Positions 19,888 through 56,835 of a DNA stretch of 64,000 bases are shown here, piece by piece. A program made the translations under genes and the position numbers. Each line of letters opens with the position of its first letter. The stretch's first letter is position 1. The notes beneath the pieces are model-generated. The model ran no database searches and was not told the origin of the DNA. It worked only from the letters and a program-made list of their open reading frames with translations. The DNA comes from a virus (taxonomy: Duplodnaviria; Heunggongvirae; Uroviricota; Caudoviricetes): the IMG/VR virus record IMGVR_UViG_3300037488_000489, positions 53,712 to 117,711 of that record. One strand, given 5' to 3'.

Positions 19888-20041
19888 AGGTTATTTGTAT
19901 GTTTTAATATATTCTTTAATGCACCATTTAATCATGTCCCAGATGTAATATCTTTGCTTAGATTTAGTTAGTTTGTGTAAACCCTCATAATATGTAAAAT
20001 ATTTATTCATAATATGTAATTTATTGCACTAAATTAGAAAT

Positions 20042-20314: not shown

Positions 20315-20347
20315 GTTTGTGTTTGTTTAATTGTTAATGTTTAATTG

Positions 20348-38925: not shown

Positions 38926-40065
38926 ATGGCGGATTTTTCATTAACCTCCCTCTTTGTTGTACCAGTAGGAAATACATTACCTAGCTCTGGATCAACACAA
39001 GACTTAACAGCTGGTCAAGTTGGTATTTTTACTAACACCTATGCTGTAGCAACTGCAGGTAACATTGCGGCTGCCCCTTATTTTTACGTAGCTCAAGGTA
39101 GAGTAAACACTTACCTACAAGGTTCTAAGCGTTCTGACAAGATTTCTGCAAACAATGTATCTGAGTGGTACAAAGTTACAGGTAATCCAGTTGCTGCTAA
39201 CCAAGTAACAGAAGTTGGTGATTTCACTGTAAAACCAGGTGAAGTTGTAACTTTAACATTGCGTGCTTTCTCTAGCTACATTAACACATTGTATTTCAAC
39301 GGTTTCACTCGCAGTGTAACTGTAAATGCTCCATGTTTAGCATGTGGTGCAGATCCTTGTACAGATGTTGATGTACCTGCTTTAATTGATGATTTAATTT
39401 ATCACTTAGAGTTAAAAGCTCCAGGTAACAACCCTGACAACATTTCTTTCAGCACTTTCTATCAATTCCAAAGAATTGGTAATGATCAAGATGCTAAGTT
39501 AGTTATTAGTGGTAAACCTTTAACTCAGTATGGACAACCATGTGATGTTGCTGCATTCCCTTGGGAATACGATCGTATGTACTTCCGTACATTCATCTTC
39601 TCTGGTCCAGCTACAACTGCTGACTTTATTGTTGCTGATCCTTGTAACCAAGTAGCTCAAGCTGTAATTACTCAACGTAGTTCTTATGTTTCTGGTACTT
39701 CTGCAGAGGTTCAACAATTAGAAAAGAATTTCTATAGCTACCAAGCTGGTTATTTGAAGCACTTATACCGTATGGTTGGGTACAACGAAAACTTTGAAAG
39801 CTGGGTATCTGATGGTACTGTTTATGATACTCTTTACATCAAGTTTAACGAGTATGATAAATCAGCTTACAAATGGGGTGATTATATCATTGAAGATTCT
39901 CAAGTAATTCTTGCAATTCCTCAAGCTTTAACTGCTGGCTTCTTAGCTGTCTTAAATCCAGCATTAGGTGCTCCAGTTGATGAAAGCGGTGATATCACTT
40001 CTACAACTAGTACTACAACTACTATTTGGCCTAGTACTTCAACAACAACTACTTTGATTCCTTAA
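38926..40065 (+). CDS. abundant virion protein candidate (major structural protein) with C-terminal poly-Thr tail
   Basis: Followed by the strongest intrinsic terminator in the window. Ends 'TSTTSTTTTIWPSTSTTTTLIP'. Confidence 0.45.
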   Translation: MADFSLTSLFVVPVGNTLPSSGSTQDLTAGQVGIFTNTYAVATAGNIAAAPYFYVAQGRVNTYLQGSKRSDKISANNVSEWYKVTGNPVAANQVTEVGDFTVKPGEVVTLTLRAFSSYINTLYFNGFTRSVTVNAPCLACGADPCTDVDVPALIDDLIYHLELKAPGNNPDNISFSTFYQFQRIGNDQDAKLVISGKPLTQYGQPCDVAAFPWEYDRMYFRTFIFSGPATTADFIVADPCNQVAQAVITQRSSYVSGTSAEVQQLEKNFYSYQAGYLKHLYRMVGYNENFESWVSDGTVYDTLYIKFNEYDKSAYKWGDYIIEDSQVILAIPQALTAGFLAVLNPALGAPVDESGDITSTTSTTTTIWPSTSTTTTLIP

Positions 40066-41095: not shown

Positions 41096-42199
41096 ATGTC
41101 TTGTACAAGTTGTTTTAATGGATGTGTTGAGACTGTATCTGATCAATGTGTTAGATATACAGGTCCAACTATTCCTGCTCTAAATATTACTACAGGAGAT
41201 ACATTGCTTCATGTAGAAGAAATGATTACAACTAAACTTGTTCCATTATTAACTGGTACAGGTGATGTTATAACTATTGCTTCTGGTGATAAGTGTGCTC
41301 TTATAAATGGATTCTTAATAGGAATCACTTCTCCTAATTCTACTCAGTTATTCACAGCATTAGTTAAATCTGTTTGTAGTTTACAAGCTCAGGTGACTGC
41401 CGTTGCTGCTGATATTGCTGTATTAAATGCAGATTATACAATAGGTTGTCTTACAGGTGTAACAGCCTCTTCTGACACACATGCTATCTTACAAGCTGTT
41501 ATTACAAGACTTTGTGTTGTAGTAGCAGATTTAGCAGCATTAAGTTTAGATGTAAGTACAAACTATGTAAAACTATCTGAATTAGATTCATTAATAGCTG
41601 CATATATAGCTGGTCAATCAGGTAATGTAACTCAGAACTATTTAAAGATGGTTCCTTTTACAGTGGTTGAATACTATGGTCCTCTTACAAACTTTGATGG
41701 TACAGGTGCTGGTGTAGGAACATTAGGATGGGACAAAATCTATTTATGTAATGGCTCTAACGGCACTCCTGATAAAAGAGGTAGAGTTGGTGTAGGAGCT
41801 ATTCTTAATGTTCCTGGCGGACCATTAAATGCTGCTGTAGATCCTGTTTATACTGGTAATCCAAATTATGATCTTGAAGATATTGCTGGTGCAAACACAG
41901 TGGCTATAAATGTTAATCAACTTCCTAGTCATACACATGGTGCAACAGCAAGTGCTACATCTATTGTAACAGACCCTGGTCATAGTCACTTTGTAGGTAA
42001 CACTCCTGAAGGTTGGGATAGTGCAGGTAACATTGGTATTGTAAATAGAACACCAAAAAATGTTCAAACTACAACTTCTACAACAGGTATCACTGTAGCA
42101 ACAACCGTAAACGTAAGTAATACAAATACTGGAGCAAATCAAGGTCATCCAAACATTCAACCTGTACTTGCTGCTTACTACATCATGTATATTCCTTAA
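41096..42199 (+). CDS. tail fiber protein with phage tail-collar domain
   Basis: C-terminal 'NQLPSHTHGATASATS...GHSHF...HPNIQPVLAAYYIMYIP' resembles the tail-collar (PF07484-like) His-rich signature. Cys-rich 'MSC' N-terminus shared with the next fiber. Confidence 0.55.
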   Translation: MSCTSCFNGCVETVSDQCVRYTGPTIPALNITTGDTLLHVEEMITTKLVPLLTGTGDVITIASGDKCALINGFLIGITSPNSTQLFTALVKSVCSLQAQVTAVAADIAVLNADYTIGCLTGVTASSDTHAILQAVITRLCVVVADLAALSLDVSTNYVKLSELDSLIAAYIAGQSGNVTQNYLKMVPFTVVEYYGPLTNFDGTGAGVGTLGWDKIYLCNGSNGTPDKRGRVGVGAILNVPGGPLNAAVDPVYTGNPNYDLEDIAGANTVAINVNQLPSHTHGATASATSIVTDPGHSHFVGNTPEGWDSAGNIGIVNRTPKNVQTTTSTTGITVATTVNVSNTNTGANQGHPNIQPVLAAYYIMYIP

Positions 42200-42218: not shown

Positions 42219-44015
42219 ATGTCTTGTTTACCTGGTACACCTTGCTATGACGCTTATTATCATCCTAGTGAAAACTGTGGATGTGCTGAGTGCATTAGTA
42301 ATTCAAATAATGTAATATATGTTGGTCCTAATTTACCAAACTCAGGAGTTCAAAACGGAGACTGCCTAACTCTTACTATAGAAAAATTAGATGATTCTAT
42401 TGGTACAGGTGGTGGAGGAACAGGTACTTCAGGTACGTCTGGTTCTTCTGGCACTCGTGGCACTAGTGGTACATCAGGAACTTCAGGTATCAACGGTACA
42501 CCAGGAGCTGCTGGTACGTCTGGTACGTCTGGTGTTAATGGTACATCTGGTGGTAACGGTACCTCAGGTACTTCTGGTGTAAGTGGTACAAACGGTGCTT
42601 CAGGAACCAGTGGAACATCTGGTGGAAGAGGTGCTGATGGAACAAGTGGTATTAATGGAACAAGTGGTGCAAATGGCACAAGTGGTCTTACAGGAAGTTC
42701 AGGAACTGATGGTTCTTCAGGAACCTCTGGTATAGATGGAACTTCTGGAACAAGTGCCATAGATGGAACTTCTGGCTCAGCTGGAACTTCTGGAATAGAT
42801 GGCACCTCTGGTAGTTCAGGAACTACTGGAACTTCAGGAACCACTGGAACTTCAGGTACATCAGGCTTTGAAGGAGGTCTTGCACAATGGAGATATAATC
42901 CTAGTACAAACACAAACGTTAATCCTGGTGTTACATACTTCACTTTAAATGATGCAAGTTGGTTAGCGTCTGCTTCTCAAATTGCAATCAGTGATTTATC
43001 ATATAATCCTAGTGCTGACTTCTCAGCATATCTAGATGCATTAAACCCTTTCTCAGCACTTAAGCTAGTTAGTACAGTTGATTCTTCTAGATTTAAAATA
43101 TTAGAAATTGTATCTACTTCTCCTTTTGAAGTGGGTTTTGAAAGATTTATAGTTACTCAAACTGCAGCTCAGGGTACGAATCCTGTAAGTGGTGAAACAT
43201 TTATGATAGTTCCTGTAGGTGCTGCTGGTAGTTCAGGCACATCTGGAACAGCTGGTTCTAGCGGTACTACTGGTACATCAGGCACATCTGGAACCACTGG
43301 TACTTCTGGTACAAGTGGAACGTCAGGGACTTCTGGTTCTTCAGGATCTAGTGGTTCTTCAGGATCTAGTGGTACAACAGGCACATCAGGTACAACAGGC
43401 ACATCAGGTACTACTGGTACTAGTGGAACAACTGGTACATCTGGAACCACAGGAACTTCAGGAACCACTGGTACTAGTGGCTCATCTGGTTCTTCAGGAG
43501 CTAGTACAGGCGGAACTAGTGGAACTAGTGGAACTAGTGGCAATAGTGGTAGTTCTGGTACAACAGGTACCTCTGGTAATAGCGGATCTTCAGGAACATC
43601 TGGAACTAGTGGAGCTAATGGAGCAGGATTTAATTCTATTTCTCCTACAACAGCTGGTTATGTACTTACAGCTAATGGAACATCAAATAGTGCAACAGCA
43701 AATTCAGGAGTTACTATTAGTGGTTCTCAATTAAATGCTGGTTCATTTTATGAAACTTCAGATATAAGATTTAAAAATGTATTAGAAACTAATCCATCTA
43801 TAGATTTACCATTAGATGTAATTAAGTTTACAAGAACAGATGAAGAATCTAATCAAGTTAGATATGGTTACTCAGCACAGCAAGTACAATCAGTGCTTCC
43901 AGATTTAGTATCTGGTGATGAGAAACTAGTGGTTAATTATTCAGATGTACATACATTAAAAATAGCAGCCTTAGAAAAACGCATAGCAGAATTAGAAGCT
44001 AAATTAAACCAATAA
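42219..44015 (+). CDS. collagen-like tail fiber with C-terminal intramolecular-chaperone (peptidase S74-like) domain
   Basis: Two blocks of Gly-X-Y triplets (GTSGTSGSSGTRGTS..., about 50 and 45 triplets). C-terminus 'SDIRFKNV...VRYGYSAQQVQSVLPDLV' matches the SD(I/V)R(L/F)K autoprocessing motif. Confidence 0.75.
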   Translation: MSCLPGTPCYDAYYHPSENCGCAECISNSNNVIYVGPNLPNSGVQNGDCLTLTIEKLDDSIGTGGGGTGTSGTSGSSGTRGTSGTSGTSGINGTPGAAGTSGTSGVNGTSGGNGTSGTSGVSGTNGASGTSGTSGGRGADGTSGINGTSGANGTSGLTGSSGTDGSSGTSGIDGTSGTSAIDGTSGSAGTSGIDGTSGSSGTTGTSGTTGTSGTSGFEGGLAQWRYNPSTNTNVNPGVTYFTLNDASWLASASQIAISDLSYNPSADFSAYLDALNPFSALKLVSTVDSSRFKILEIVSTSPFEVGFERFIVTQTAAQGTNPVSGETFMIVPVGAAGSSGTSGTAGSSGTTGTSGTSGTTGTSGTSGTSGTSGSSGSSGSSGSSGTTGTSGTTGTSGTTGTSGTTGTSGTTGTSGTTGTSGSSGSSGASTGGTSGTSGTSGNSGSSGTTGTSGNSGSSGTSGTSGANGAGFNSISPTTAGYVLTANGTSNSATANSGVTISGSQLNAGSFYETSDIRFKNVLETNPSIDLPLDVIKFTRTDEESNQVRYGYSAQQVQSVLPDLVSGDEKLVVNYSDVHTLKIAALEKRIAELEAKLNQ

Positions 44016-44887
44016 TGAAAGTTAATAATTACTTAGTAACAGGAGCCAATCTTGCTACAATGGGATATATACAGAAGCCTGGGACAACTCCTCCTCTTGA
44101 TGGCAGCATTATGAGTAAAGGAGAAGCTGATGCTAATTATTATATAGATGGTACAGTTAGTCCTTGGTCTACCTATCCTAATACAAGAGCTCCTAAATAT
44201 CAAGACTACCCATGTCCTTGTGTACAAGGTATTGAAGTATATAATCAAATGGAGGATGGATTTAGTCAAACTATATCATATCAAGACTGTTCTGGAAATA
44301 CATATTATTATTATCTTCCTTACGGTGGGGCTATAGGAATTATTGGATGTTCATCTGGAGGAGAAGGTGGACCTGTAACAGGTTGTGGAATTTTAAGAGG
44401 AAGTGTTGAAGGAGTTAACTTAAGCGAAATAACTTATGGAGGATGCTGTTATGCAAACTATCCATGTACTACAACTAGTACAACCACTCTACCTCAATGC
44501 AATTACAATGGACTCACTGTAGTTTGCAACGCTCCTTCAGGATATGCTATTTTAGAATGGACTTTTAGTGAAACAGGTGGACCTGCTGGAGAAATGGTAT
44601 TATATGTAAATGGCAATCCAATTGAAACAAGAACTTCAACTTCAAATGGAACATATAATGTTTATCCAGGTGATACAATTTATGTAGAATTAAATATATA
44701 TGTTCCATGTGGACCGCCTGATACATATGCAAATGTTTATACAAGTGGTAACATTTCTAATGATGCAAATTGTGCTAATAATGCAGGAGTATCTTTAACC
44801 ACATCAACATATACAGTAGTAAGTGGTGATATAGGAAGTTATCTTGTGTTGAATACATTTGCAGGGTGTGATGGTGCATGTATATAA
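44015..44887 (+). CDS. Cys-rich tail-associated protein (290 aa)
   Basis: ORF with many Cys pairs and a poly-Thr segment 'CTTTSTTTLPQC'. Confidence 0.5.
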   Translation: MKVNNYLVTGANLATMGYIQKPGTTPPLDGSIMSKGEADANYYIDGTVSPWSTYPNTRAPKYQDYPCPCVQGIEVYNQMEDGFSQTISYQDCSGNTYYYYLPYGGAIGIIGCSSGGEGGPVTGCGILRGSVEGVNLSEITYGGCCYANYPCTTTSTTTLPQCNYNGLTVVCNAPSGYAILEWTFSETGGPAGEMVLYVNGNPIETRTSTSNGTYNVYPGDTIYVELNIYVPCGPPDTYANVYTSGNISNDANCANNAGVSLTTSTYTVVSGDIGSYLVLNTFAGCDGACI

Positions 44888-44899
44888 ATAAAATAAAAA

Positions 44900-46153
44900 A
44901 TGGCAATAAATATAACATTAACATTAGGAGCTGGGTTAGGTGCTAACTTAGGACCAAACTTTAATCTTACAGCAGATGTTGGTAGTGTAAGTCCATCAAC
45001 TGCCACAAAAGCAGAATTGCTTGCAGGTAAAACTGTTGATGTAGATAACTCTGCTAGCCAAGTTACAGTAACATCTACTGGAGCTTGTACAAATGCAATA
45101 GCACAAGCTATTCCATGTGCTAGCACTACAACTACAACCACCACAATTAATCCAACTAACAATCTTAGTTTTTTTAATGTTGCTGTAAGTAGAGATGATG
45201 TTACCACTTCAAATGATGGTAAATATGTAGCTGCAATATGTACAACAAATAATAAGTTATATCTCTCTAATGACTATGGAATTACCTACAGATCAATCAC
45301 TGTATCTGGAACAAATTTAATTAAACGAGTTGCAATAAGTGGAACAGGTCAATATATATATTGCACTGCACAACAAACAGGACAGCCAGCATTTATTGTA
45401 AGATCTACAGACTATGGTTTTAATTGGAACACTACAGGTAGTGTAACAGGATCATACTATTCAATTACTACAAATAGAACAGGACAGTATGTAATAATTG
45501 GAGCAATGAATCAGGGTGAAGCATTGAACTCTCCATATTTAAGTCAAATATGGAGATCTTCAGATTATGGAATATCTTTCACAAGAATACTATTTGAGGA
45601 TGTTGGTTATCCTCAGTTAGCGTATGATGTTACGGTAGATAGTTCAGGTGATCGTCAATATGCTGCTGCTATTAATCTTTCTATGGCACCAATTGATGCT
45701 CAAATAGGAAGAACAACAAGTGCTTCAGGTATTTTTAATGCTGGTTATGCAAGAACAAATGATGAAACATATTTTGCAGTGAGCACAAACGCAGATGGAT
45801 CAAAAGTGGTTCTTGCTAATCAAGGTGGGTTTTATGGATATAGTCCTGGAAATGTTCAATTGAAAAGAAGTATAGACTATGGACAAACATACGCAACTTT
45901 TGGTGGTGTTTCTACTCAATGGTACGATGTAACTATTGATGGAAGCGGTACAAATATAATAGCTGTTCCAGGTACTTCAGGAGCAAGCACTTTATATAGA
46001 TCAGTTTCATTTGGCACTCTTTCTTCAGTGGCAAGTTCTAAACTTTGGAATGGTGTTTCAATTTCTTATAATTCATATGTAGCAATTGCTTCAGAAACAA
46101 CTGGACTTTGGAGATCTACAAATGGTGGATCTGATTGGATAAAATTACCTTAA
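44900..46153 (+). CDS. BNR/Asp-box repeat beta-propeller protein (sialidase-like fold) with type-A N-terminal anchor module
   Basis: Five Asp-box-like motifs (SNDYGITY, STDYGFNW, SSDYGISF, SIDYGQTY, STNGGSDW). N-terminal about 65 aa about 80% identical in DNA to 55562..55960. Confidence 0.65.
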   Translation: MAINITLTLGAGLGANLGPNFNLTADVGSVSPSTATKAELLAGKTVDVDNSASQVTVTSTGACTNAIAQAIPCASTTTTTTTINPTNNLSFFNVAVSRDDVTTSNDGKYVAAICTTNNKLYLSNDYGITYRSITVSGTNLIKRVAISGTGQYIYCTAQQTGQPAFIVRSTDYGFNWNTTGSVTGSYYSITTNRTGQYVIIGAMNQGEALNSPYLSQIWRSSDYGISFTRILFEDVGYPQLAYDVTVDSSGDRQYAAAINLSMAPIDAQIGRTTSASGIFNAGYARTNDETYFAVSTNADGSKVVLANQGGFYGYSPGNVQLKRSIDYGQTYATFGGVSTQWYDVTIDGSGTNIIAVPGTSGASTLYRSVSFGTLSSVASSKLWNGVSISYNSYVAIASETTGLWRSTNGGSDWIKLP

Positions 46154-46167
46154 TTAAATAAACCAAC

Positions 46168-46650
46168 ATGACAGTATTAATAACTTTAACAACAGCTGGA
46201 TCTGATACAGGACCTTTCAATATTTACTCAAATGCAAATGGGTTTTCAACAATAATCATCTCTGGTGTATCTAGAGCATCTCTGGTAGCTGGCTATAATG
46301 CAACTGTTCCTGATGGAACAACAGAGGTTTTAGTTAGGTCTACAGGAGCTTGTCAAAGAGATCTTTATTTAGATGTGTCAGGAGCTCCTGCTACAACAAC
46401 TAGTACAACTAGTACAACAAGTTCAAGTACGACTTTAATACCTCCTGTTGAATGTTATGGTTATGAGGTTTGTGCAGATGATGGCACAGGAGATAGAGAT
46501 GCTTTTCCTTTCACTTACATAAGTTGTAATGGAACATCTATAGAATCAAGTGTGGTGAACACACAATGTAGAGAAATTTGTGCTGCAAGAGATTCTGTAG
46601 ATTCAATTTCTGGAGCTATTTTTATAACAGAAATTGGACCTTGTTTATAA
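46168..46650 (+). CDS. tail appendage protein with type-B N-terminal anchor module (160 aa)
   Basis: N-terminus 'TAGSDTGPFNIYSN...LVAGYNATVPDGTTEVLVRSTGAC' shared with 54911.. and 55969..; then a poly-Thr/Ser linker. Confidence 0.5.
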   Translation: MTVLITLTTAGSDTGPFNIYSNANGFSTIIISGVSRASLVAGYNATVPDGTTEVLVRSTGACQRDLYLDVSGAPATTTSTTSTTSSSTTLIPPVECYGYEVCADDGTGDRDAFPFTYISCNGTSIESSVVNTQCREICAARDSVDSISGAIFITEIGPCL

Positions 46651-46664
46651 TAAATTATTAAAAA

Positions 46665-46723
46665 CCCTGTTTGTTGGTTTACAGGGCATCCCCTGGCCTT
46701 TCTAGGCTGGGGGTTTTTTTTTT
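46665..46723 (+). terminator. tandem-hairpin rho-independent terminator
   Basis: Hairpin 1 CCCTGT-(loop)-ACAGGG. Hairpin 2 CCCCTGGCCT-TTC-AGGCTGGGGG, followed by T10. Confidence 0.7.
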
Positions 46724-46773
46724 AAACTCTAATCAAATTGATTAAACTATATAATTAAATTAGTTAACTAAAT

Positions 46774-46805
46774 TTGGAAAATATCAAAAAAGTTTCATAC
46801 CTTTA
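46774..46805 (+). promoter_or_regulatory. Bacteroidetes-type promoter (TTG ... TACCTTTA) upstream of 46835 gene
   Basis: TTG at 46774-76, about 21-nt spacer, TACCTTTA at 46798-805. Surrounding 'CATACCTTTnCTTTAA' is near-identical to the 27012 promoter. Confidence 0.45.
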
Positions 46806-46834
46806 CTTTAATTTTAACCAAACTTAAAACTTAT

Positions 46835-48076
46835 ATGTCTGGAAACCAACCCCTTTTGGAGCAGCTACAGCAGATGTTACACTGGAAAAAATCAAAGAAA
46901 TATTACGCTGACAAGCTAGGAGTGACAGAATTAGAGATTGATGAGTTATTAACAGATATTAGAAAGAGAGAAGAGGAAGCCATCACTGGCAATTATATAT
47001 CTGATCTAGAAGACACTGTAGTTAAGTTTACAGAAGATCTAGTAAAAGGAACTGGAGAGATTGTAGCCAATGTCTCAGAAGAGATTAAAAGCCTTGATGA
47101 GCTTATTGAGAAGTGTAAGATAGACACAGATAAGTGGGAGATAACTAAATACGTACAAAACTATTGGGGAAACGGAGATAGTCCACACTGGCAAGTAAAA
47201 GCCTGGTTAGGAAAGAAGTCTGCAGAGCAAGTGTTTCAAGATAGCTTTGTGGACTTTTTAGCTTCATATAAGCCTGTGAGTCAAGAGGTTATGATTCCTA
47301 AGTTCTCTGAGCACAAGTTTCCTGCTATGCTGGTTATTAACAAACAGGATTCTCATTTAAACAAATATGATATTGATGGTAATAATAACATCACTGATAG
47401 ACTAGCTTCTATTATGTACAAGGTGGAACTTATTGCTAATCAAGCACAGCTTTCAAATAACCTAGAACAAATTACATATATCATTGGTTCTGATGAATTC
47501 AATAGTGAATTTACAGGAACTACAACTAAAGGTACTCCTCAAACAAACACCCATACATATCAAGATTCATTTAGTTTTATATGTGACCATGAGGTGTTAA
47601 TGATTACAATGTTATTACAATATGCTGAAAGTGTAAATGTAATCTATGTAGCAGGTAATCATGATGAGTTTGTAGGATGGCATTTAGTTACTTGGTTACA
47701 ATCTTATTTCAGAAATACAACTAGACTTACATTTGATGTTAGTCCTAAGTATAGAAAGTATATAAGTTATGGTGGTTCAGCATTAATGTTTAACCATGGA
47801 GATGCAATTAAGCCTGCTAAGTTAGCAGCATTATTCCCAATAGAATATAGAGAAGGATGGTCTTTCCATAACAACTTCTACATATTCACAGGAGACAAAC
47901 ACCATGAAGTAAGTCACGACTTTAATGGTATTAAATTTTACCAAATACCAGCATTTTCTAATGCTAAAAGCCTTTGGGATGATAAGAACGGTCACACAAT
48001 GTCTAAAGCAGAAGTGACTGGATTCTTAATAGAACAAGGGTCAGGAATGACAAATATATTTAAACAGTATTTATAA
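46835..48076 (+). CDS. calcineurin-like metallophosphatase domain protein
   Basis: C-terminal half carries 'VIYVAGNHDEF' (GNHD/E motif) and 'LMFNHGD'. Own promoter and upstream terminator. Confidence 0.5.
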   Translation: MSGNQPLLEQLQQMLHWKKSKKYYADKLGVTELEIDELLTDIRKREEEAITGNYISDLEDTVVKFTEDLVKGTGEIVANVSEEIKSLDELIEKCKIDTDKWEITKYVQNYWGNGDSPHWQVKAWLGKKSAEQVFQDSFVDFLASYKPVSQEVMIPKFSEHKFPAMLVINKQDSHLNKYDIDGNNNITDRLASIMYKVELIANQAQLSNNLEQITYIIGSDEFNSEFTGTTTKGTPQTNTHTYQDSFSFICDHEVLMITMLLQYAESVNVIYVAGNHDEFVGWHLVTWLQSYFRNTTRLTFDVSPKYRKYISYGGSALMFNHGDAIKPAKLAALFPIEYREGWSFHNNFYIFTGDKHHEVSHDFNGIKFYQIPAFSNAKSLWDDKNGHTMSKAEVTGFLIEQGSGMTNIFKQYL

Positions 48077-48810
48077 TGGCAACATTACGTAAGTTAGTTT
48101 CAGATGTGCGTGGAATGCATAAGCTTATATCCACAGATAACGTTATCACAGATAGAGTTATTGCATCAGAGATTAGAAACAACACACAGTTATTAGTTAA
48201 ACGTGAGACAAACCTCAGAAAGCTTTGGGCTACTGATACTGTCTTTAATACCATCCAATGTTTGGAAATGGTAGAAGTTCCTATTTCTGACTGTTGTAAT
48301 TACGTAGACCCATGCACTGTTTCTAGAAGTAAGTACAAGCTTCCTAGGATTACAGAAGGAAATTATCAATATTTGATACAAGGTGTTTATTCTATAAATG
48401 CTATGGGAGGAATGGGTACAAAGTTTAAAGAGATTACTATCAATAGATATTTAAATTTATTAGGACTTCCTATTATTAAAAAACAAACATACTATTGGAT
48501 AGCAAACGAAGGTTACTTATATTTGAGTAATCCAAATTTAAAATCAGTTAGGATATCAGCATTCTTTGAAGAAGATATTCCTAATGATATTGCATATCCA
48601 GAGTGCGGATGTGGAACTGGTCCTGAGGTTACTGATGAAGAATACTGCAAAAATCCTTTGGATAAAGAATATGGTTGTCCAGGATATCTTGAGAAACAAG
48701 TATTAGAGCTTACGTCTCAAAAATTATTATCTACATATTTTAGTATTAAAACAGATATGGCAGATAACGGTGTTGATGGGCAAGCTCCTAATGCACAACC
48801 AACCCAGTAA
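48076..48810 (+). CDS. hypothetical structural protein (244 aa)
   Basis: ORF, start overlaps upstream stop. Confidence 0.5.
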   Translation: MATLRKLVSDVRGMHKLISTDNVITDRVIASEIRNNTQLLVKRETNLRKLWATDTVFNTIQCLEMVEVPISDCCNYVDPCTVSRSKYKLPRITEGNYQYLIQGVYSINAMGGMGTKFKEITINRYLNLLGLPIIKKQTYYWIANEGYLYLSNPNLKSVRISAFFEEDIPNDIAYPECGCGTGPEVTDEEYCKNPLDKEYGCPGYLEKQVLELTSQKLLSTYFSIKTDMADNGVDGQAPNAQPTQ

Positions 48811-49286
48811 TGAGGACAAAAATTGATTGGAGAAGCTCCAGTAAAGAAAACTACAATAACTTTTGCAAAAAGCATCCCACAATTAAAATTACATTTGATG
48901 AGTGGAGAAACATTTTATATTCTTACAATGAGAATTTTAAAAGTTATATATTAGAAACTGGAGAAAAAGCAAAGCTACCTTTTGGATTTGGTGAGTTTTC
49001 AATCAATAAAAAGAAAAGAAAGAAGGTTAAAGATATCAACGGTAAGGAGTACATTAACTTACCAGTAGACTGGCAAAAGTCTAAAGAGAAAGGAAAAATT
49101 ATATACAACTTTAATTATCACACAGAGGGTTATTTTTTTGGCTGGGTATGGTTTAAAGAAACTGCCAGACTAAGAAACATAGACTTGTGGTATTTTAAAC
49201 CTTCAAGAGTCACATCAAGATTGCTCTCACATTATATAAAAACAAACGATACGTATCAACACATCTATCGTGAGTGGAAAAAATAA
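48810..49286 (+). CDS. hypothetical protein (158 aa)
   Basis: ORF; basic, Trp-rich. Confidence 0.45.
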   Translation: MRTKIDWRSSSKENYNNFCKKHPTIKITFDEWRNILYSYNENFKSYILETGEKAKLPFGFGEFSINKKKRKKVKDINGKEYINLPVDWQKSKEKGKIIYNFNYHTEGYFFGWVWFKETARLRNIDLWYFKPSRVTSRLLSHYIKTNDTYQHIYREWKK

Positions 49287-49289
49287 ATT

Positions 49290-50258
49290 ATGTCATACTA
49301 TTATAAGTACAGATTTGTATCTCCTGAACCAGTTTATGCAACTGTTAAAGAAGAATTAAAAAGCTATTTTGACACAGGAGCTGTGGATGATTTGCTTTTC
49401 CCTACTTATTTAAACAAGTGTTTAAACAAGTTAGGTAGGACAACTTATGCTATTGCTGAGCAAGTTCTTTATATTGAAGACTTCCAGGCTAGACTTCCTG
49501 ATAACTTTTTTGCCGCTAGAGAAGCTTGGATGTGTACAGAGATACCAGGTTATCCTTATCAATCAGCTAATTCATTTTATTCTCAAGCTGCCTCTCAAAC
49601 AACTATTCAAATAGCACCTATCATTAGTGGAACAGTACCTTGTACCAATCCTCAATGTACAACAGGTTGCCCTACATGTATGCCTGAGCTTATACAAGCT
49701 GTGTACAAAACAAACAATGCAATAGCTAGATCTTATAGACAAGAATATTTATTAAAACCAGGTAACATTTCTGCAAGAAACAACTGTGAAGTTGAATACA
49801 GTAATGCTTGGGAGTTTTATGCTCCACCTCCAACAGTACATGAGTTTACTCCTGGTTCTGCTGGTTATGATTCATTTGACATTAGAGATAACAAATTTGT
49901 TACTAACTTCAGAAATGGTGTAGTACATTTATTATTTTATGCTACAGAGTATGATAATATAGGCAATCAATTAATTCCTGATAACTATCGTATTAGAGAA
50001 TTTATAGAAGCATTCATTAAATATAAAGTGTTTGAAACTCTTTCAAATCAAATTAATGATGAGACCTTCCAACAAATACAACAAAAGCTTGCTTATTACA
50101 AACAGTTACATGATGAAGCATTTATCATGGCTGATATTGAAATCAAGAAACAAACTCCTTGGGAGAAGCAAAGAAGAATTAAAAATGACTTGAACAGATT
50201 CCAAATGTATGAGTTACCTAATAGAACTAACAGATACGGCAGGAGAAGAAATAATTAA
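49290..50258 (+). CDS. hypothetical structural protein (322 aa)
   Basis: ORF; Cys cluster 'CTNPQCTTGCPTC'. Confidence 0.5.
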   Translation: MSYYYKYRFVSPEPVYATVKEELKSYFDTGAVDDLLFPTYLNKCLNKLGRTTYAIAEQVLYIEDFQARLPDNFFAAREAWMCTEIPGYPYQSANSFYSQAASQTTIQIAPIISGTVPCTNPQCTTGCPTCMPELIQAVYKTNNAIARSYRQEYLLKPGNISARNNCEVEYSNAWEFYAPPPTVHEFTPGSAGYDSFDIRDNKFVTNFRNGVVHLLFYATEYDNIGNQLIPDNYRIREFIEAFIKYKVFETLSNQINDETFQQIQQKLAYYKQLHDEAFIMADIEIKKQTPWEKQRRIKNDLNRFQMYELPNRTNRYGRRRNN

Positions 50259-50263
50259 TAATT

Positions 50264-53200
50264 ATGGCAGAGCAAGAACAAGGAAATATTAGACAGGAAT
50301 TTAGTCTAGGTAGAACTGGACTAAACATGGACTCATCTGTAAATCAGGTTGAGAAGGGTAAGCTTACGTATGCCTTAAATGCATCTGTTGAGAATTTTAG
50401 TGCTACTGCTGTAAACTATCAAAATGAACCAGGTAATGAGTTATGTCTAAACTTTCCTGAGAATTTTCATCTTATTGGAACACATTTTATTCAAGAGAAG
50501 AATCAACATATATTCTTTTTAACTAATCCTGAAACTGGGGCTTCTCAGATTGGATACATGGATAACAACGATTGTATCTATCACATGTACGTAGAAGGAC
50601 TTTGTTTAAACTTTAATATTAACTATCCAATACAAAAAGCTGTACACAAGATTTCAAATTGCAGTACAGAGATTTATTGGACAGATGGATTAAACCCTAG
50701 AAGATATTTAGATCTTGATAACATTCCATATATTACAACTTTTCCAGATGGTGTTATTTGTGATCCTATTGTAACACCAATACTTGATTGTAATAAATTA
50801 AAGATACAACCTAATTTTAGTATTCCAGATTTAGAAGTTGTTGATGTTATTAATGGTGGAGATTTAAAAGCTGGTACATATCAATTTGCTATTCAATATT
50901 GTAGTGCCCAAGGAGATGCATACACTTCTTACTATTCAGTAACTAATCCAACTCCTATTGCTAATCCAAAATTAACCACAGCTAACTTTGATTACGCTGT
51001 AGGTAGATCTATTGTAATTGATATAAGCAATATTGATTTAACAGGATACTTTGAATATTACAATCTAGCTGTAATTAAAACAATAAATGATATCACCTCT
51101 GTTCAATTAGTAGGTACATATTTTATTGATGGTGCTACAAATCAAATTACTTATACAGGACAAGATGTAACAGCTATTAGTTTAGCAATTGCTGATATAT
51201 TTGAAAAGTTTCCGTACTATGAGATTGCACAAGATTTAACAGCTGTACAAGATATTCTTGTATGGGATCAACTTACATCTATTGATAAAATTAATTATCA
51301 AAGTATTGCTAGTAAAATTGATCTTCAATGGCAAACTTACAAAATTCCAGCTGGAGAAACTTACGCTGATGAACTGAATGCTACTAATTTACGTGGATAT
51401 CTACGTGATGAAATATATGCATTTGAAATTGTTTTCTTATTAAGAAATGGTAAGCAAACAGATGGTTTTCATATTCCTGGTAGGGCTGCTACAGCTGATG
51501 ATTTAGTAATTGTTAATAAATCTACAAATGCTGATTTTATTGGTACAGGAACAACTGCTCCTTATTGGAAGATTTATAATACAGCTTCTGTAGTAGGAAC
51601 TGCTATTGGTCCTAATATTGGAAGTGCTACACCTTATGAGTTTGGTAATTTTGCATATTGGGAATCTAATGAGGAATATCCATGTAACACTTTTTTATAT
51701 GGAGATTTAGCTGGACAAAAGATTCGTCATCATAAATTTCCTGATATTCTAGTTAGTCCAATGTTTGAGTCACAAGCTCCAAACTATAATTTTCCAGAAC
51801 TTCAAAAAGCAAATGCTTTATATCCTATTGGTGTTAAAATAAATACACAACAGGTAACATCGTTAATTGATAACTCTAATCTAACAGCTGATCAAAAAGC
51901 TGATATAGTTGCATATAAAATTGTAAGAGGTGATAGGGCTACAAACAAATCTATTGTAGCAAAAGGTATGTTAAGAAATGTTGGTACTTACGAAAGAGAA
52001 GGTACACAATATTACTATCCTAACTATCCTTATAATGACATTAAGACTGATCCATTTTTATTAAAAGATAATAATGCTTATAACGCTCAATGTCAAACAT
52101 TTAAAGTTGTAGTTGCTACAGTTGGTACAATGCAAATAACTGATTGTTATACAGGAGAAGTTACTGCTGTTGCTATGCCTTTAGGAATGACTAGCATATG
52201 TTCTATTACAGTTCCTTTAGTAATTACAGGATCTGCTACATTTACTAATGTTACAGCTGTATCTTATACATTAACTTCTTATCTATCAATTCCTTCAACA
52301 TCTACTACATTTATATATACTGATCCAGTTACACTAGTGAGTGTTAATGTAACTGTTCCAATAAATACTTCAATTACTGTTAGTTCTACAACTGTTCCTA
52401 GTCGTGTAAGTGGATCTCCTAGATATACAATATTAGAGACTACTAATAATAAAAATACAAATTGTTATCCAGTTAATTTAAGTGGATTTGATAATAGTTC
52501 TAAATATAGAATGGTGTTTAATTCACCAGAGACTTCTTTTGGGCAACCTTATTTAGGCAATGTGCTTAAGTTAGAAAGTGCTATGTTTGGAGGGGGTAGA
52601 GCACACTTTGTACAAGTTAAAAATCATGCATTATATAAGTTAATTACTAAACAAGCACAAGTAGATGCTTTAACCTCAAGTTATAATATTGCTAATATAA
52701 CAGCTCCATTTAATGCTACTGCAATGTTCACTGCTTACCAAGCGTATTTAACAATTTATATTAATGGTATTAGCAGAAGAAACTTTACATATTCATTTAA
52801 TTCCACTGCTCAATATGATTATAATGCAGATGTTCAAAACGCTGCTCCTGATGCATTTGGTAACATAGGTGTTAAACAAAGGGAACTTGATTTATATCAA
52901 TATCTTATTCCTGGTTTTCAATCTGTTGGTGATGTTTATAATGTAAATAACTTTCAAAGAGAATCTTCTGTTTATTTAAAAACATTAGATGCTATAACTC
53001 CATTGCCATTTGCTGAACAAACTCCATCTTTAGTGGTTGCTGGAAACAGTTTAATTACTGATGATTCAAGATTTACAATTTCTTCAAGAGATAATTGTGC
53101 TTCTCCAGAGATGCAAGAACCTATTAAAGTGGTATCTTATTATGGGTCTATCAAGAACATAAATATTAATCAGTGGGGACAACTATATTCATATCAAACA

Positions 53201-54895
53201 ATTGATACAGGTTTTCAAAAACATTTGTCTGATGTAGCAGGAGTTGATACTGTATTTGGTGGAGATACATTTATTGGTAGATTTGCTTATAAAACTAAAC
53301 TTCCTTTCTTTATTGATAATAGAGTGGGGGCTCCTGATGATAGTGATATTTTTTATGATGAATTAGGTAATGTTGCCTACCCACAATACTGGTACTCAGC
53401 TAGATCTATACTAAGCAATTATAAAGCTGGTGCAACAATAATGAAAAATATTATATCTATTAAGGCACATTATCTTGATTGCCCTAATGATTATACTTTT
53501 ATAAGTAATACTACTACTACTACTTCTACTACAGCTGCTCCAGGTAGTACATCTTTGAGTGATGCAACCTATTCATATGACGGTAAGATGTATCTATTTG
53601 CTTATGGTATTCCTTATTACTATGTAGAAAGTTCTATAAATGTAGACTTGCGTCAAGCATTTAATAACTTAGAAGGTGATTACTATCCACACGTGAGCTC
53701 AGGTATTCCTGATAACTGGTTACAACAATCTGTTGTTCCAATTCAGTTTGACAATACATATACATATAATGTAACGTATTCAAAACAGAATAAAGAAAAC
53801 TTCTTCTCTCACTTACCTGTAGATTTTGATGACGACCAATGTTATACAAGCTTTCCATTCAGAGCAGTTTATTCTGAGGCACAAGCAGATAATCCAAGCG
53901 TAAGAGTAAATAGTTGGTTAAATTATAAACCTGTAGCATTCTTTGATTTTCCTCAAAACTATGGCAAGTTAACATCACTAGATGGTATTCAAAATAAAGC
54001 TGTGTTAGCTAGATTTGAGAATAAGTCATTGTTATACAACACGTTGTTAACAATGAATACAAGTAATCCTCAAGCTGCTTATTTAGGCAATCCTTCTTTA
54101 TTTAGATCTGCTCCTCCAATTGATTTTGCTGAGACAGACCTTGGATATGTAGGAAGTCAAAATAAGTTCTTATTAAAGATTCCTAATGGACAAGTGACTA
54201 TAGATGCCAAGAGAGGACAAGTATTTCTTATTAATGGAATGGGTGGTCAAATACAAGACTTATCTGCATTTGGTTCAGGACTTAATAAGTTCTTTACAGA
54301 CCATCTAGCATTTGAAATCTTACGTTACTATCCTAATGCTGATACAGATAATCATTTTAATGCTTGTGGTTTACATGGTGTATATGATAGTAAGTATGAT
54401 AGAATCATTATTTCTAAACTTGATTATATTCCTCAACCAGCATATGCAAGTGTTATTAAATATGATGAGTTGACAGGTGAATATTATATTGATAAAGCTT
54501 ATGGTGATTTATCTTTAAGAAAGGTAGTTAGTTTAACAGACAGACAATACTTCTGTAATAAGTCGTGGACTTTATCATACAGTGTAAATATACAAAGCTG
54601 GGTTAGTTTTCATAGTTATATTCCTAACTGGTACATAGCAGAAAATAACTTCTTCTACTCAGGACTGAATGAAGGATGTGACTTAGAAGCTATTGCTGTT
54701 ATGGAGATTCCTAGCCCAACTACTACAACTACAACAACGATAGTATTAAATTGTAATTTAGATGGTACAGCAGTATATGGTACAACAACTACTACAACAA
54801 CTCCTACTCCTCCTAATTGTACATTAACTGCAGGAAGTGCTGTTGTAGTAACAAGTGATTGTACATTAACTGCTGGAACAGCTATTCTCCAATAA
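50264..54895 (+). CDS. giant virion protein (1543 aa), probable tail/baseplate host-recognition protein with poly-Thr linkers
   Basis: Single uninterrupted ORF. Several poly-Thr linkers ('TTTTSTTAAPGST', 'SPTTTTTTTIVLNCN', 'TTTTTTTPTPPNCTL'). C-terminal duplicated 'CTLTAG(S/T)A' motif. Confidence 0.55.
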   Translation: MAEQEQGNIRQEFSLGRTGLNMDSSVNQVEKGKLTYALNASVENFSATAVNYQNEPGNELCLNFPENFHLIGTHFIQEKNQHIFFLTNPETGASQIGYMDNNDCIYHMYVEGLCLNFNINYPIQKAVHKISNCSTEIYWTDGLNPRRYLDLDNIPYITTFPDGVICDPIVTPILDCNKLKIQPNFSIPDLEVVDVINGGDLKAGTYQFAIQYCSAQGDAYTSYYSVTNPTPIANPKLTTANFDYAVGRSIVIDISNIDLTGYFEYYNLAVIKTINDITSVQLVGTYFIDGATNQITYTGQDVTAISLAIADIFEKFPYYEIAQDLTAVQDILVWDQLTSIDKINYQSIASKIDLQWQTYKIPAGETYADELNATNLRGYLRDEIYAFEIVFLLRNGKQTDGFHIPGRAATADDLVIVNKSTNADFIGTGTTAPYWKIYNTASVVGTAIGPNIGSATPYEFGNFAYWESNEEYPCNTFLYGDLAGQKIRHHKFPDILVSPMFESQAPNYNFPELQKANALYPIGVKINTQQVTSLIDNSNLTADQKADIVAYKIVRGDRATNKSIVAKGMLRNVGTYEREGTQYYYPNYPYNDIKTDPFLLKDNNAYNAQCQTFKVVVATVGTMQITDCYTGEVTAVAMPLGMTSICSITVPLVITGSATFTNVTAVSYTLTSYLSIPSTSTTFIYTDPVTLVSVNVTVPINTSITVSSTTVPSRVSGSPRYTILETTNNKNTNCYPVNLSGFDNSSKYRMVFNSPETSFGQPYLGNVLKLESAMFGGGRAHFVQVKNHALYKLITKQAQVDALTSSYNIANITAPFNATAMFTAYQAYLTIYINGISRRNFTYSFNSTAQYDYNADVQNAAPDAFGNIGVKQRELDLYQYLIPGFQSVGDVYNVNNFQRESSVYLKTLDAITPLPFAEQTPSLVVAGNSLITDDSRFTISSRDNCASPEMQEPIKVVSYYGSIKNININQWGQLYSYQTIDTGFQKHLSDVAGVDTVFGGDTFIGRFAYKTKLPFFIDNRVGAPDDSDIFYDELGNVAYPQYWYSARSILSNYKAGATIMKNIISIKAHYLDCPNDYTFISNTTTTTSTTAAPGSTSLSDATYSYDGKMYLFAYGIPYYYVESSINVDLRQAFNNLEGDYYPHVSSGIPDNWLQQSVVPIQFDNTYTYNVTYSKQNKENFFSHLPVDFDDDQCYTSFPFRAVYSEAQADNPSVRVNSWLNYKPVAFFDFPQNYGKLTSLDGIQNKAVLARFENKSLLYNTLLTMNTSNPQAAYLGNPSLFRSAPPIDFAETDLGYVGSQNKFLLKIPNGQVTIDAKRGQVFLINGMGGQIQDLSAFGSGLNKFFTDHLAFEILRYYPNADTDNHFNACGLHGVYDSKYDRIIISKLDYIPQPAYASVIKYDELTGEYYIDKAYGDLSLRKVVSLTDRQYFCNKSWTLSYSVNIQSWVSFHSYIPNWYIAENNFFYSGLNEGCDLEAIAVMEIPSPTTTTTTTIVLNCNLDGTAVYGTTTTTTTPTPPNCTLTAGSAVVVTSDCTLTAGTAILQ

Positions 54896-54910
54896 ATAAA
54901 TTAAAAATAT

Positions 54911-55540
54911 ATGTCACAAACAGTAATTATAACAATCGCAGCAGCAGGAACTGATACAGGTCCATTTAATATTTTTTCTAATTTAGATTATGTTACTCCG
55001 TTTGCTACAGGAATAGCAAAATCAGCTTTATTAGCTGGTTACACTTCAACTGTAGTACCTGATGGAGCTACGTCAGTTAGAGTAAAATCAAATAGTGCTA
55101 GTTGTACAAATTATGTAGATATGTCAATAACAGGTGGACCAACAGCTCAATGTAGTTTTGCTGGAGGTCTCACTGAAATATATTCTCTTTTAACTAATAA
55201 TGGGCAAAAAACTGTTGTGGCTATTATGAGAAAAAATAATGGTAGTAATATTACAGCAACAACTGTTGCTTATAATTCTACTGGAAGAGCATTTTTAAGT
55301 GGTACTACATGGACTGATTCTGATACTTTAGAAATAATTTTAAATGATACAGTAAGTGGTCAACCTATGACTATTGTAAATCCAACATTATTTCCTAATG
55401 GAAGTGTGGCATTTTCTCCATCAAACATTGCAGGTCAAGGTACATCAACGGTAACATTGACTTTTAATGGTGATGGTAGTGGATGGGGATTAGGTCGTAG
55501 TATGTTTTGGTTTAACTTCACATTTTCAGCAAACGCTTAA
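54911..55540 (+). CDS. tail appendage protein with type-B N-terminal anchor module (209 aa)
   Basis: N-terminus 'AAGTDTGPFNIFSN...LLAGYTSTVVPDGATSVRVKS' paralogous to 46168.. and 55969.. Confidence 0.5.
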   Translation: MSQTVIITIAAAGTDTGPFNIFSNLDYVTPFATGIAKSALLAGYTSTVVPDGATSVRVKSNSASCTNYVDMSITGGPTAQCSFAGGLTEIYSLLTNNGQKTVVAIMRKNNGSNITATTVAYNSTGRAFLSGTTWTDSDTLEIILNDTVSGQPMTIVNPTLFPNGSVAFSPSNIAGQGTSTVTLTFNGDGSGWGLGRSMFWFNFTFSANA

Positions 55541-55561
55541 TAAATATAAAATTAAAATAAT

Positions 55562-55960
55562 ATGAACTTGTTAGTAACGTTAAATTCATCACTAGGGGCA
55601 GATTTAGGACCTAATTTTAATCTCACAGCAGACGTAGGAAGTGTTGGACCATCAACAGCTACTAGATCAGAATTACTTGTTGGTAAATCAGTATCAGTAT
55701 CTGATACAGCTACACAATTAAATATAACATCAACAGGTGCTTGTACCAACTCTTTAGATTTATTAATAGACGTTCCACCTTCTTGTACATGTAGACAAGG
55801 TACAATAACAAATAATAATGCATTCTCATATACAGATTGTTCTGGGGTATTATTCTCAGGAGGAGCAGAACAAGGTTCAGAAGTTTGTGTAAACATTGAT
55901 CTTCCTTACAGTGCAAATATTGGTAATTTAACTACTTCTGTAATCTGTAATTGTAATTAA
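55562..55960 (+). CDS. short tail appendage protein with type-A N-terminal anchor module (132 aa)
   Basis: N-terminus 'LGADLGPNFNLTADVGSVGPSTATRSELLVGKSV...TSTGACTNS' paralogous to the N-terminus of 44900..46153. Confidence 0.5.
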   Translation: MNLLVTLNSSLGADLGPNFNLTADVGSVGPSTATRSELLVGKSVSVSDTATQLNITSTGACTNSLDLLIDVPPSCTCRQGTITNNNAFSYTDCSGVLFSGGAEQGSEVCVNIDLPYSANIGNLTTSVICNCN

Positions 55961-55968
55961 TAAAAAAA

Positions 55969-56835
55969 ATGTCTAAAACAGTAATAATAAAATTAACAGG
56001 AGCTGGAAACAGAACAGGACCATTCAACATCTATGATGATTTGGGTAATGTTTTGGGCACAGCTGTGTCCAAAGATAATATTATTGATGGATACACAGTG
56101 AGCGTTGCTGATGCAGTTACTGCAATTATTATAGAATCTATAGGCAAATGTACTACTAGTATAGAAGTGAATATTACAACAATGACTGTTGAACAAATAG
56201 CTGCTGTTGTATACACTCCAATCAATACACCTTCTTTATGGAGACATCTTACTAATACAACTATTTATAATAAATATTATGATGTTGTAGAGCCTTATAT
56301 TATTGAATATCCATTCTCATATCAATCATATGATGAGATACTTCAGAATGTAAAAGACTATACAAAAGCTTATAAATATCTACCTATTCCAGATGGTGTA
56401 TTTAATGATAATGCTCAGATAGAAACAGATAACCATTGGTTCAATAAAGCAGTATTATATAACGGTCAACAGTCTACAGGTGTATTAGAATTGGTACCAA
56501 AACCAATTAACAACCTAAAAGCCTATTTACAATATCCTTTATATAATGCTGAGAGTAAAACTATCATGTATACTAAATCTGATAATTTTTATCAGTATAA
56601 TACTTTTTGGAGTTTAGTTAAAAATAAAGCCGTACCTTTGTTTACGGTGAGCTGTGAGTCATTATCAATAGACAAGATTGTAAATCAAGCTAATATGGAT
56701 TACGGAAAAAGATCATATAAAAAAGAACCTTTAAGAGCTAAAGAACTTAAGGTGAGACACATTCTTGATAATACATCAGAGGCTCAATTAGTATCTCAAT
56801 TCATTATTACACCATCTCAAATCTCGTTCAAATAA
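55969..56835 (+). CDS. tail appendage protein with type-B N-terminal anchor module (288 aa)
   Basis: N-terminus 'LTGAGNRTGPFNIYDD...' is the third member of the type-B family. Confidence 0.5.
   Translation: MSKTVIIKLTGAGNRTGPFNIYDDLGNVLGTAVSKDNIIDGYTVSVADAVTAIIIESIGKCTTSIEVNITTMTVEQIAAVVYTPINTPSLWRHLTNTTIYNKYYDVVEPYIIEYPFSYQSYDEILQNVKDYTKAYKYLPIPDGVFNDNAQIETDNHWFNKAVLYNGQQSTGVLELVPKPINNLKAYLQYPLYNAESKTIMYTKSDNFYQYNTFWSLVKNKAVPLFTVSCESLSIDKIVNQANMDYGKRSYKKEPLRAKELKVRHILDNTSEAQLVSQFIITPSQISFK

Follow-up and report, generated by a model that had tools for sequence, protein, structure and literature searches.

What does a short domain do that stands at the head of five otherwise dissimilar phage proteins, and why do three of the five genes lie inside the gene for the tail tip? 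The question is raised by a 64,000-nucleotide stretch of viral DNA (the window; IMG/VR record IMGVR_UViG_3300037488_000489, positions 53,712 to 117,711, one strand), in which a first-pass annotation noticed repeated N-terminal modules on five predicted tail proteins and proposed that they anchor exchangeable receptor-binding or depolymerase domains to the virion. The window has matches to Crass_capsid, a P22-type portal, CrAss_Ring_1, CrAss_Ring_2 and crAss_MUZ in crassvirus gene order, and is best explained as DNA of a freshwater-type crAss-like phage. Little is known, to our knowledge, about host recognition by crAss-like phages; only one crassvirus structure has been solved, and in it the tail fibres are poorly resolved and the muzzle is only proposed to contact the cell. 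The lineage is very abundant in freshwater metagenomes; the 288-amino-acid (aa) protein described below has by itself more than 2,600 homologues. We report here a new domain family, a split muzzle gene and modules that have moved between the tail of the muzzle and a set of handle proteins, none of which was found described in the literature searched.

Five proteins of the tail module share one N-terminal domain

The five genes were confirmed on the + strand as first called, and their products are named here by length in amino acids. Locus 1 comprises p417 (44900..46153) and p160 (46168..46650), and locus 2 comprises p209 (54911..55540), p132 (55562..55960) and p288 (55969..56835). Each product begins with a domain of ~70 aa, here named DOM, which occurs as subtypes A and B. 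p417 carries a subtype A DOM (residues 1-72, nt 44900-45115; 84 bits with the DOM profile), then a poly-Thr linker and a BNR/Asp-box beta-propeller-like C-terminal part. p160 is the last gene of locus 1, with an exonuclease-like gene directly downstream, and joins a subtype B DOM (nt 46168-46383; 98 bits) through a Thr/Ser linker to a small Cys-rich module. In locus 2 the variable protein p209 has a subtype B DOM (nt 54911-55135; 102 bits) and a 134-aa distal module, p132 has a subtype A DOM (nt 55562-55774; ~90 bits) and a 60-aa Cys-rich module, and p288 has a subtype B DOM (residues 1-71, nt 55969-56181), a conserved 17-aa linker and a muzzle C-terminal domain (residues 89-288, nt 56233-56832). 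The A-B gene order that had been read at both loci is present at locus 1; locus 2 is B-A-B. The loci had also been said to flank the gene for a 1543-aa protein, and this needs qualification, as locus 1 lies 3.6-5.4 kb upstream with four genes between, while locus 2 abuts the stop codon.

The predicted N-terminal similarity was significant on formal pairwise alignment. In BLASTP comparisons among the window proteins, p132 and p417 were 62% identical over 69 aa (E 2e-25), and the subtype B trio were 37-45% identical (E 4e-10 to 1e-15). Pairs between subtypes were also significant (p132/p160 5e-7, p132/p288 8e-7, p288/p417 2e-5) and nine positions are invariant across all five proteins (G14, G18, P19, F21, N22, G43, V48, S59 and C63 in p417 numbering); A and B, which had been taken for two families, are therefore subtypes of one domain. 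The C-terminal parts gave no significant mutual similarity by BLASTP, as the first-pass annotation had claimed. When a DOM profile was run against the six-frame translation of all 64 kb, exactly these five copies were found (77-102 bits, E 4e-23 to 6e-31), and the next-best match, at 7.7 bits, was at the level of shuffled controls (best 6.0 bits). The profile was built from 124 members including the five window copies, and the scores are thus partly by construction; the pairwise BLAST results are independent of it.

The two subtype A copies had been estimated at about 80% identity in DNA. The measured value was 65% over 207 aligned bases, rising to 70% in the core and falling to 42% at third codon positions. 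Because third-position identity is so low, the A pair are old paralogues whose similarity was kept by selection on the protein, and a recent duplication or gene conversion was ruled out on the same figure. A protein nearly identical to p132 (P0001) is encoded on a JGI contig, and the p132 DOM groups in a tree with free-standing DOM proteins of 70-72 aa from two related contigs (L001 and L030).

Most of the distal parts are small Cys-rich modules behind poly-Thr linkers and, to judge from their sequences, look more like binding modules than enzymes. The C-terminal part of p417 has one BNR_6 match at 28.6 bits against a cut-off of 27, and several SxDxGxx[WFY]-like motifs were seen in its sequence; the propeller had no PDB sequence match.

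The domain defines a new family

Searching a word-indexed database with the DOM profile retrieved 274 proteins, none with a Pfam domain and many of them free-standing at 70-75 aa, and an exhaustive search of public data gave 2,220 DOM clusters at E<=1e-3, of which 1,600 also reached E<=1e-10. The domain was N-terminal in every match for which a position was listed or tested; among the 150 best matches it started at residues 1-8 in 149 and at residue 23 in the remaining one. No family in Pfam or PHROG was matched, even when the 124 aligned members were scanned singly. By Pfam scan the domain does not fall in described Ig-like families (Big_2, I-set, fn3 and similar), and no sequence or specific fold homology was found to described anchor domains such as the T7 tail-fibre N-terminal and P22 head-binding domains. 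These comparisons define DOM as a new domain family.

The AlphaFold2 (AF2) model of the p209 DOM, made from the 124-member alignment, is a six-strand beta-sandwich with one short helix at a predicted local distance difference test (pLDDT) score of 83, and the p288 DOM was modelled at pLDDT ~90. Fold similarity of the model was limited to generic beta-sandwiches. Against viral models, Foldseek returned five uncharacterised proteins of Virus NIOZ-UU157, an unclassified marine metagenomic virus (UniProt/BFVD), of 417, 77, 77, 939 and 287 aa, with template modelling (TM) scores of 0.80-0.88 and 26-39% identity. The model comparison, and a set of sizes similar to that of the DOM proteins, point to membership of the same family; no annotation or publication was found for the DOM-like proteins of that virus. 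Of 107 unique DOMs, 106 have a Cys near the end of the domain, and in 88 of these 106 it is the only Cys.

The muzzle gene is split and locus 2 lies in the break

The 1543-aa protein encoded between the two loci (50264..54895, + strand) matches PF25731 crAss_MUZ at profile positions 9-290 (E 1.8e-39), and its residues 1101-1479 match positions 961-1220 of 1224; its core extends to about residue 1470 (nt 54673). PHROG 15100 matches the N-terminal part of the same protein, and the last 190 positions of this PHROG match p288 residues 89-286. With tblastn, p288 found the extreme C-termini of single large proteins in two phages, Leptolyngbya phage Lbo-JY46 (E 8e-18) and Flavobacterium phage Fpv1 (gp30, E 2e-10). 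These proteins, of 1654 aa and 1783 aa respectively, the latter annotated as a virion structural protein, were taken as unsplit references. BLASTP aligned residues 869-1470 of the window muzzle to 895-1457 of the Lbo-JY46 protein and p288 89-288 to its residues 1462-1654, and p288 89-286 to gp30 1589-1781. The window muzzle and p288 89-288 are thus collinear with both references, but these are single polypeptides. The region of gp30 aligned with p288 is matched by PF25729 crAss_MUZ_C; p288 itself had no direct match to PF25729, and its homology to MUZ_C is transitive through gp30 and the Lbo-JY46 protein. In the window the MUZ_C-equivalent region is on a separate open reading frame, two genes downstream of the MUZ body, and not on the same polypeptide. 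From this collinearity and the profile boundary, the sequence alignments therefore establish a muzzle gene split at the point where MUZ meets MUZ_C (PF25731/PF25729).

Locus 2 falls exactly in the break, which holds an added tail on the muzzle N-terminal fragment (residues 1471-1543; 54674..54892, + strand), p209, p132, and the DOM and linker of p288. Read from the sequence, this tail is built of three CxLxGxA mini-repeats and poly-Thr linkers, and in the window it ends without a globular domain. By the same alignments, the C-terminal part of p288 would be the virion-integral piece and its DOM the added one. Modelled alone by AF2, this C-terminal part was unstructured (pLDDT below 50), which fits a fragment of a larger fold and proves nothing. 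The crAss001 muzzle chains in PDB were out of reach of sequence and profile searches with the window proteins, and no DOM was found within the 18.6-kb tail regions of Fpv1 and Lbo-JY46 that were examined.

Joining of the muzzle to the next DOM gene by stop-codon readthrough or frameshifting was rejected. Over 33 unique junctions the three frame offsets occurred 7, 15 and 11 times; in the window the two genes are in the same frame, and further in-frame stops occur in most of the in-frame junctions, that of the window included. A Cys 4-5 residues past the break (in the window residue 1475, in the motif LNEGC, 54686-54688) is present in every parsable split muzzle tail and is missing from the corresponding position of the unsplit Fpv1 and Lbo-JY46 proteins; it is a candidate disulfide partner for the DOM Cys.

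C-terminal parts are replaced between close relatives

Comparison with related genomes was made on 80 IMG/VR contigs (referred to by L-numbers) whose Ring1 protein is 76-99% identical to that of the window. On these contigs DOM occurs on the + strand only, at the N-terminus of open reading frames only and in two slots only. Slot 1, just upstream of the exonuclease-like gene, holds 0-4 DOM genes for products of 75-832 aa, and the gene directly upstream of the exonuclease-like gene is DOM-headed in most, not all, contigs. Slot 2, between the muzzle gene and that for a 1519-aa protein, holds 1-3. An orthologue of p288 with its DOM is present wherever the region is covered. A second sample gave a DOM in 56 of 56 unique p288 orthologues, with one extra upstream DOM gene in 14, and 2,656 homologues of p288 were found, the best 120 of which are all 286-289 aa long. 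In a neighbour-joining tree, 107 unique DOMs sort by gene slot and not by genome into four clades: one of A-type copies, one of p288 copies, one from the gene that ends locus 1 and one from the variable locus-2 gene.

The first-pass annotation had proposed a conserved N-terminal module with swappable distal parts, and in relatives the DOM was indeed 85-99% identical against 6-35% for the C-terminal part. In contigs with Ring1 98% identical, the variable locus-2 proteins had DOMs 85-88% identical and C-terminal parts 6-24% identical; between the window and L012, the last locus-1 protein (the p160 slot) had values of 99% and 35%. The proposal fails for p288, the C-terminal part of which is the conserved muzzle domain. 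The propeller of p417 is found in L048 (74% identical) and in L030 on a different N-terminal module of ~70 aa. The alignments thus bear out the C-terminal shuffling that had been predicted: C-terminal parts are replaced between close relatives, and module swapping on a conserved handle is well supported at the level of sequence.

The module that bears the propeller in L048 and L030 belongs to a second family of N-terminal handles ('MSWxxxANNQ...', ~70 aa), which at locus 1 of relatives stands at the start of proteins of 226-561 aa (31 open reading frames; for example L048 4476-5156 and 5189-6703, L030 5640-6758), sometimes twice per genome; BLAST detected none in the window. Extra genes without DOM lie in or next to the muzzle break of some relatives, with gaps between muzzle and p288 of 4.3 kb (L033), 1.7 kb (L039) and 0.85 kb (L082), and in L004 a NUMOD4 homing-endonuclease-like gene (19704-20255) directly follows p288, which suggests that the muzzle break is a general insertion hot spot.

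Muzzle tails and DOM proteins share distal modules

In relatives the muzzle tail is 40-526 aa long (whole protein 1497-2084 aa) and consists of CxLxGxA repeats and poly-Thr, to which globular end modules are often added. These end modules are homologous to the C-terminal parts of DOM proteins. A DOM-protein C-terminal part and a muzzle-tail module were 68% identical over 116 aa between L021 and L066, 85% over 71 aa between L007 and L063, and 46% over 87 aa between L039 and L064; the distal module of p209 aligned over 132 aa with the C-terminal end of what is probably the muzzle N-terminal fragment of L001 (50% identity, E 3e-38). By alignment, then, DOM proteins and muzzle tails draw on common modules. 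The variable locus-2 gene was present with none of 8 unique muzzle tails longer than 350 aa and with 14 of 23 shorter ones, these cases not being phylogenetically independent.

A run of at least five Thr/Ser within 45 residues after the DOM was found in 62 of 77 unique DOM proteins other than p288. The coding repeats of the Thr linkers recur across many structural genes and could act as recombination joints. Outside the DOM loci of the window, poly-Thr/Ser linkers with ACWAC-type coding repeats occur in several structural proteins, for example at the C-terminal end of a 379-aa protein and internally in a 290-aa protein (38926-40065 and 44015-44887 respectively).

The CxLxGxA repeats are found in 1-8 copies, with poly-Thr between them, in the muzzle tails of L004-L082 and at about 9480-9600 of L001, and may be a structural cap, a disulfide ring or a recombination junction. 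The motif also starts distal modules inside DOM proteins and, going by these positions, seems rather to belong to the junction between linker and module.

A second lineage with a split muzzle

A second lineage, comprising L001 and 19 related contigs of up to ~67 kb, was examined within 8-kb flanks. Its muzzle is split ~35 residues further upstream than that of the window. A fragment of 180-184 aa matches crAss_MUZ 1190-1223 and MUZ_C 2-82, both below threshold but collinear, and this C-terminal muzzle fragment has no DOM; the upstream protein of L001 (1317 aa) is called muzzle by position and weak similarity only. Between the two fragments lie 0, 1 or 2 DOM genes for proteins of 71-280 aa, mostly of A type. 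As these breaks hold from none to two of them, DOM genes are optional cassettes at the break. The idea that DOM is the glue of the two muzzle fragments was ruled out by the second-lineage split muzzles that have no DOM gene.

A model for module display and its alternatives

The reading we favour, with moderate confidence in it as a whole, is display of cargo on a handle and linker at the split muzzle. The muzzle break and the end of the tail-fibre gene block would be sites for displaying variable surface modules. DOM would be the conserved, virion-proximal handle, followed by a flexible poly-Thr/Ser linker and a replaceable distal module, and the phage could mount a given module either in cis, as an extension of the muzzle tail, or in trans, by way of a DOM handle. 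Phages would exchange modules with one another by recombination, probably at handle and linker sequences, and the modules would most likely bind glycans of the host surface and set or widen the host range; the swappable outer modules probably let the phage change what it sticks to. All five proteins would then be in the virion, with the distal modules as receptor binders. Gene position and architecture suggest DOM as the virion-attaching part. Because DOM genes are in the break in two lineages and a DOM is fused to the muzzle C-terminal domain, the muzzle is the probable docking region, and DOM may dock on or next to it, with the muzzle surface or the p288 copy of DOM as its partner. Its Cys may form an intermolecular disulfide; by analogy with the crAss001 tail such a role for the single Cys is plausible. 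The most specific form of the proposal is put forward tentatively, as possible but not the expected outcome: that DOM is a self-docking plug-in which mounts tip adhesins in trans, possibly locked by a disulfide, and is interchangeable with cis fusion to the split muzzle tail.

Several observations weigh against this display model. Virion presence of the DOM proteins and the docking partner of DOM are inferred from the genes. In p288 the muzzle-integral part appears to be the C-terminal domain, so that DOM is not needed there as an anchor, and between the window and L007 the p288 DOM is the less conserved part (81% identity, against 96% for the C-terminal domain). A pure anchor would hardly be expected to occur by itself, yet 9 of 77 unique DOM proteins are free-standing and cargo-free. 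The muzzle is split with no DOM gene within the 8-kb flanks in 9 of 19 second-lineage contigs, and the subtype B consensus (subtype A was not searched) had no match in the cultured phages of INPHARED. One CxLxGxA docking motif per DOM was also considered and rejected, as repeat counts of 0-8 do not track the 2-5 DOM genes on contigs covering both loci. The distal parts, finally, have no sequence match in Pfam or PDB except the marginal BNR Asp-box, and thus belong to no recognisable binding or enzymatic family; the depolymerase role once suggested for them found no support.

Some of these points would be expected if DOM were instead an exposed Ig-like adhesion or decoration domain with weak glycan binding, and the C-terminal parts or other elements attached the protein to the particle. 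Free-standing DOM proteins exist, the virion-integral C-terminal part of p288 would leave its DOM displayed, and that DOM evolves faster than the C-terminal domain behind it. We nevertheless regard this as unlikely. An anchoring C-terminal part should be the conserved one, and the opposite is found, with DOM conserved and N-terminal and C-terminal parts swapped wholesale between near-identical phages; on the muzzle tail, flexible poly-Thr linkers precede the same C-terminal modules and place them distally, and DOM clades track gene slot rather than any host-related pattern. That the DOM proteins are not virion components at all, DOM being an assembly, folding or targeting module of late accessory proteins, is scarcely credible: the disordered AF2 model of the p288 C-terminal part does leave it with no structural tie to the tail, but all DOM genes are inside the co-directional structural block and one is fused to a domain that belongs to the muzzle in other phages, distal modules are common to DOM proteins and the muzzle tail, and poly-Thr linkers with Cys-rich modules are an architecture of extracellular display.

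A variant of the handle model would make DOM a pairing module, in which the p288 DOM is the docking platform and the other proteins attach by DOM-DOM contacts, for example as A:B heterodimers, rather than to the muzzle body; by analogy with the crAss001 muzzle hexamer, six p288 copies might then be present per tail. Consistent with pairing, p288 with its DOM is universal in the window lineage, every contig fully covering both loci has p288 and at least one other DOM protein, and an A-type gene is followed immediately by a B-type gene in the window (p417-p160 and p132-p288), in L030 and, in the second lineage, in L177 and L187; a disulfide between domains could form through the one conserved Cys. 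Against it, an A-type DOM is missing from most genomes of the window lineage, and the second lineage encodes DOM proteins at the break although its C-terminal muzzle fragment is without a DOM. Of the readings that keep the proteins in the virion this is the least probable, and we think it improbable.

Comparison with known systems

A conserved N-terminal anchor or adaptor with an exchangeable C-terminal domain is a well-known principle of modular phage receptor-binding proteins (RBPs), as in the N-terminal tail-attachment domain of T7 gp17, the anchor-branch pairs of Klebsiella phages of the KP32/KP34 type and TSP1-4 of CBA120-like Ackermannviridae. The DOM proteins resemble these in having an N-terminal module common to several proteins per genome, unrelated C-terminal parts that are replaced between relatives, and genes clustered in the tail module. 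They differ in that DOM has no Pfam sequence match, those anchors included (the sequences were compared through the Pfam scan only), is far smaller at ~70 aa, leads into poly-Thr linkers and also occurs free-standing. Moreover, one DOM heads a fragment of a tail-tip protein, and the cargo consists of small modules, not beta-helix depolymerases.

The crAss001 muzzle, gp44, is a hexamer at the tail tip, the distal domain of which probably contacts the cell, and disulfides stabilise the tail assemblies (Bayfield et al. 2023, PMC10172136). The length of the muzzle varies by insertions that alter its surface properties (PMC10172136). Like gp44, the window 1543-aa protein follows Ring2 and Ring1 and matches crAss_MUZ at the N-terminal end and over the last 260 positions. 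Unlike gp44, it is encoded by a split gene with the MUZ_C equivalent on the DOM-headed 288-aa protein; the N-terminal fragment has gained a poly-Thr tail with variable modules, and up to two extra DOM genes lie in the break.

The head-fibre proteins gp21 and gp29 of crAss001 combine a short anchoring segment with a small beta-sandwich or a phi29 gp8.5-like domain (PMC10172136). They are small proteins of the crassvirus virion surface that carry an Ig-like domain and are proposed to bind external molecules, and the DOM proteins would resemble them in this. Both gp21 and gp29 attach to the capsid by their N-terminal part and bear the Ig-like domain distally, at the C-terminal end, while the beta-sandwich of DOM is N-terminal and conserved; their genes are in the head module and the DOM genes in the tail module, and there is no sequence similarity.

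The split muzzle, the DOM handle family and the mobile modules point to a concrete and testable host-range apparatus. For annotators they provide a new domain and a new gene model, that of a muzzle N-terminal fragment plus DOM-MUZ_C; for structural biologists a defined complex to model or image; and for ecologists a hypervariable marker of host specificity. A handle that docks autonomously could serve for displaying foreign modules on phage tails. Were the self-docking plug-in true, this abundant uncultured phage group would have its first defined receptor-binding apparatus, and the tail tip would be a natural split-and-display system.

Other features of the window

The window has a GC content of ~33%. 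No near-identical DNA was found among cultured phages; close relatives are common in IMG/VR, on contigs of up to ~116 kb, and some were binned with metagenome-assembled genomes of Sediminibacterium, Cytophagales and Kapaibacterium; from the bins, Sediminibacterium or other Bacteroidota are candidate hosts. The co-directional structural block runs on the + strand from ~28.9 kb onward. By profile match it contains the P22-type portal (30927-33509), the Crass_capsid major capsid protein (35480-37033) and, directly upstream of the muzzle gene, CrAss_Ring_2 (48076-48810) and CrAss_Ring_1 (49290-50258), all on the + strand. A gene for an SPFH/Band 7 domain protein (33512-34042, + strand; E 6e-27) lies between portal and capsid genes.

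The exonuclease-like gene (413 aa, 46835-48076, + strand; phrog_704, E 3e-43) stands in the tail module between locus 1 and Ring2. Its position is kept in all relatives, and in Fpv1 an 'exonuclease' gene precedes the virion structural gene at the corresponding place. Downstream of the capsid gene are two tail-fibre genes, for proteins of 367 aa and 598 aa, one of which is collagen-like with an S74 chaperone end (the 598-aa protein). The two have in common a Cys-rich N-terminal stretch (41096-41305 and 42219-42428, + strand; 38% identity over 37 aa, pairwise E 1e-5), which is a third shared N-terminal module in this gene block.

Gene orientation flips from - to + at ~24-27 kb, close to where the sign of the GC skew reverses. 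A complete tmRNA gene lies in the early or replication half (20345-20758, - strand); it matched the full-length Rfam model RF00023 at 87 bits (E 2e-32), and for it ARAGORN predicted a tag peptide ending in ALAA.

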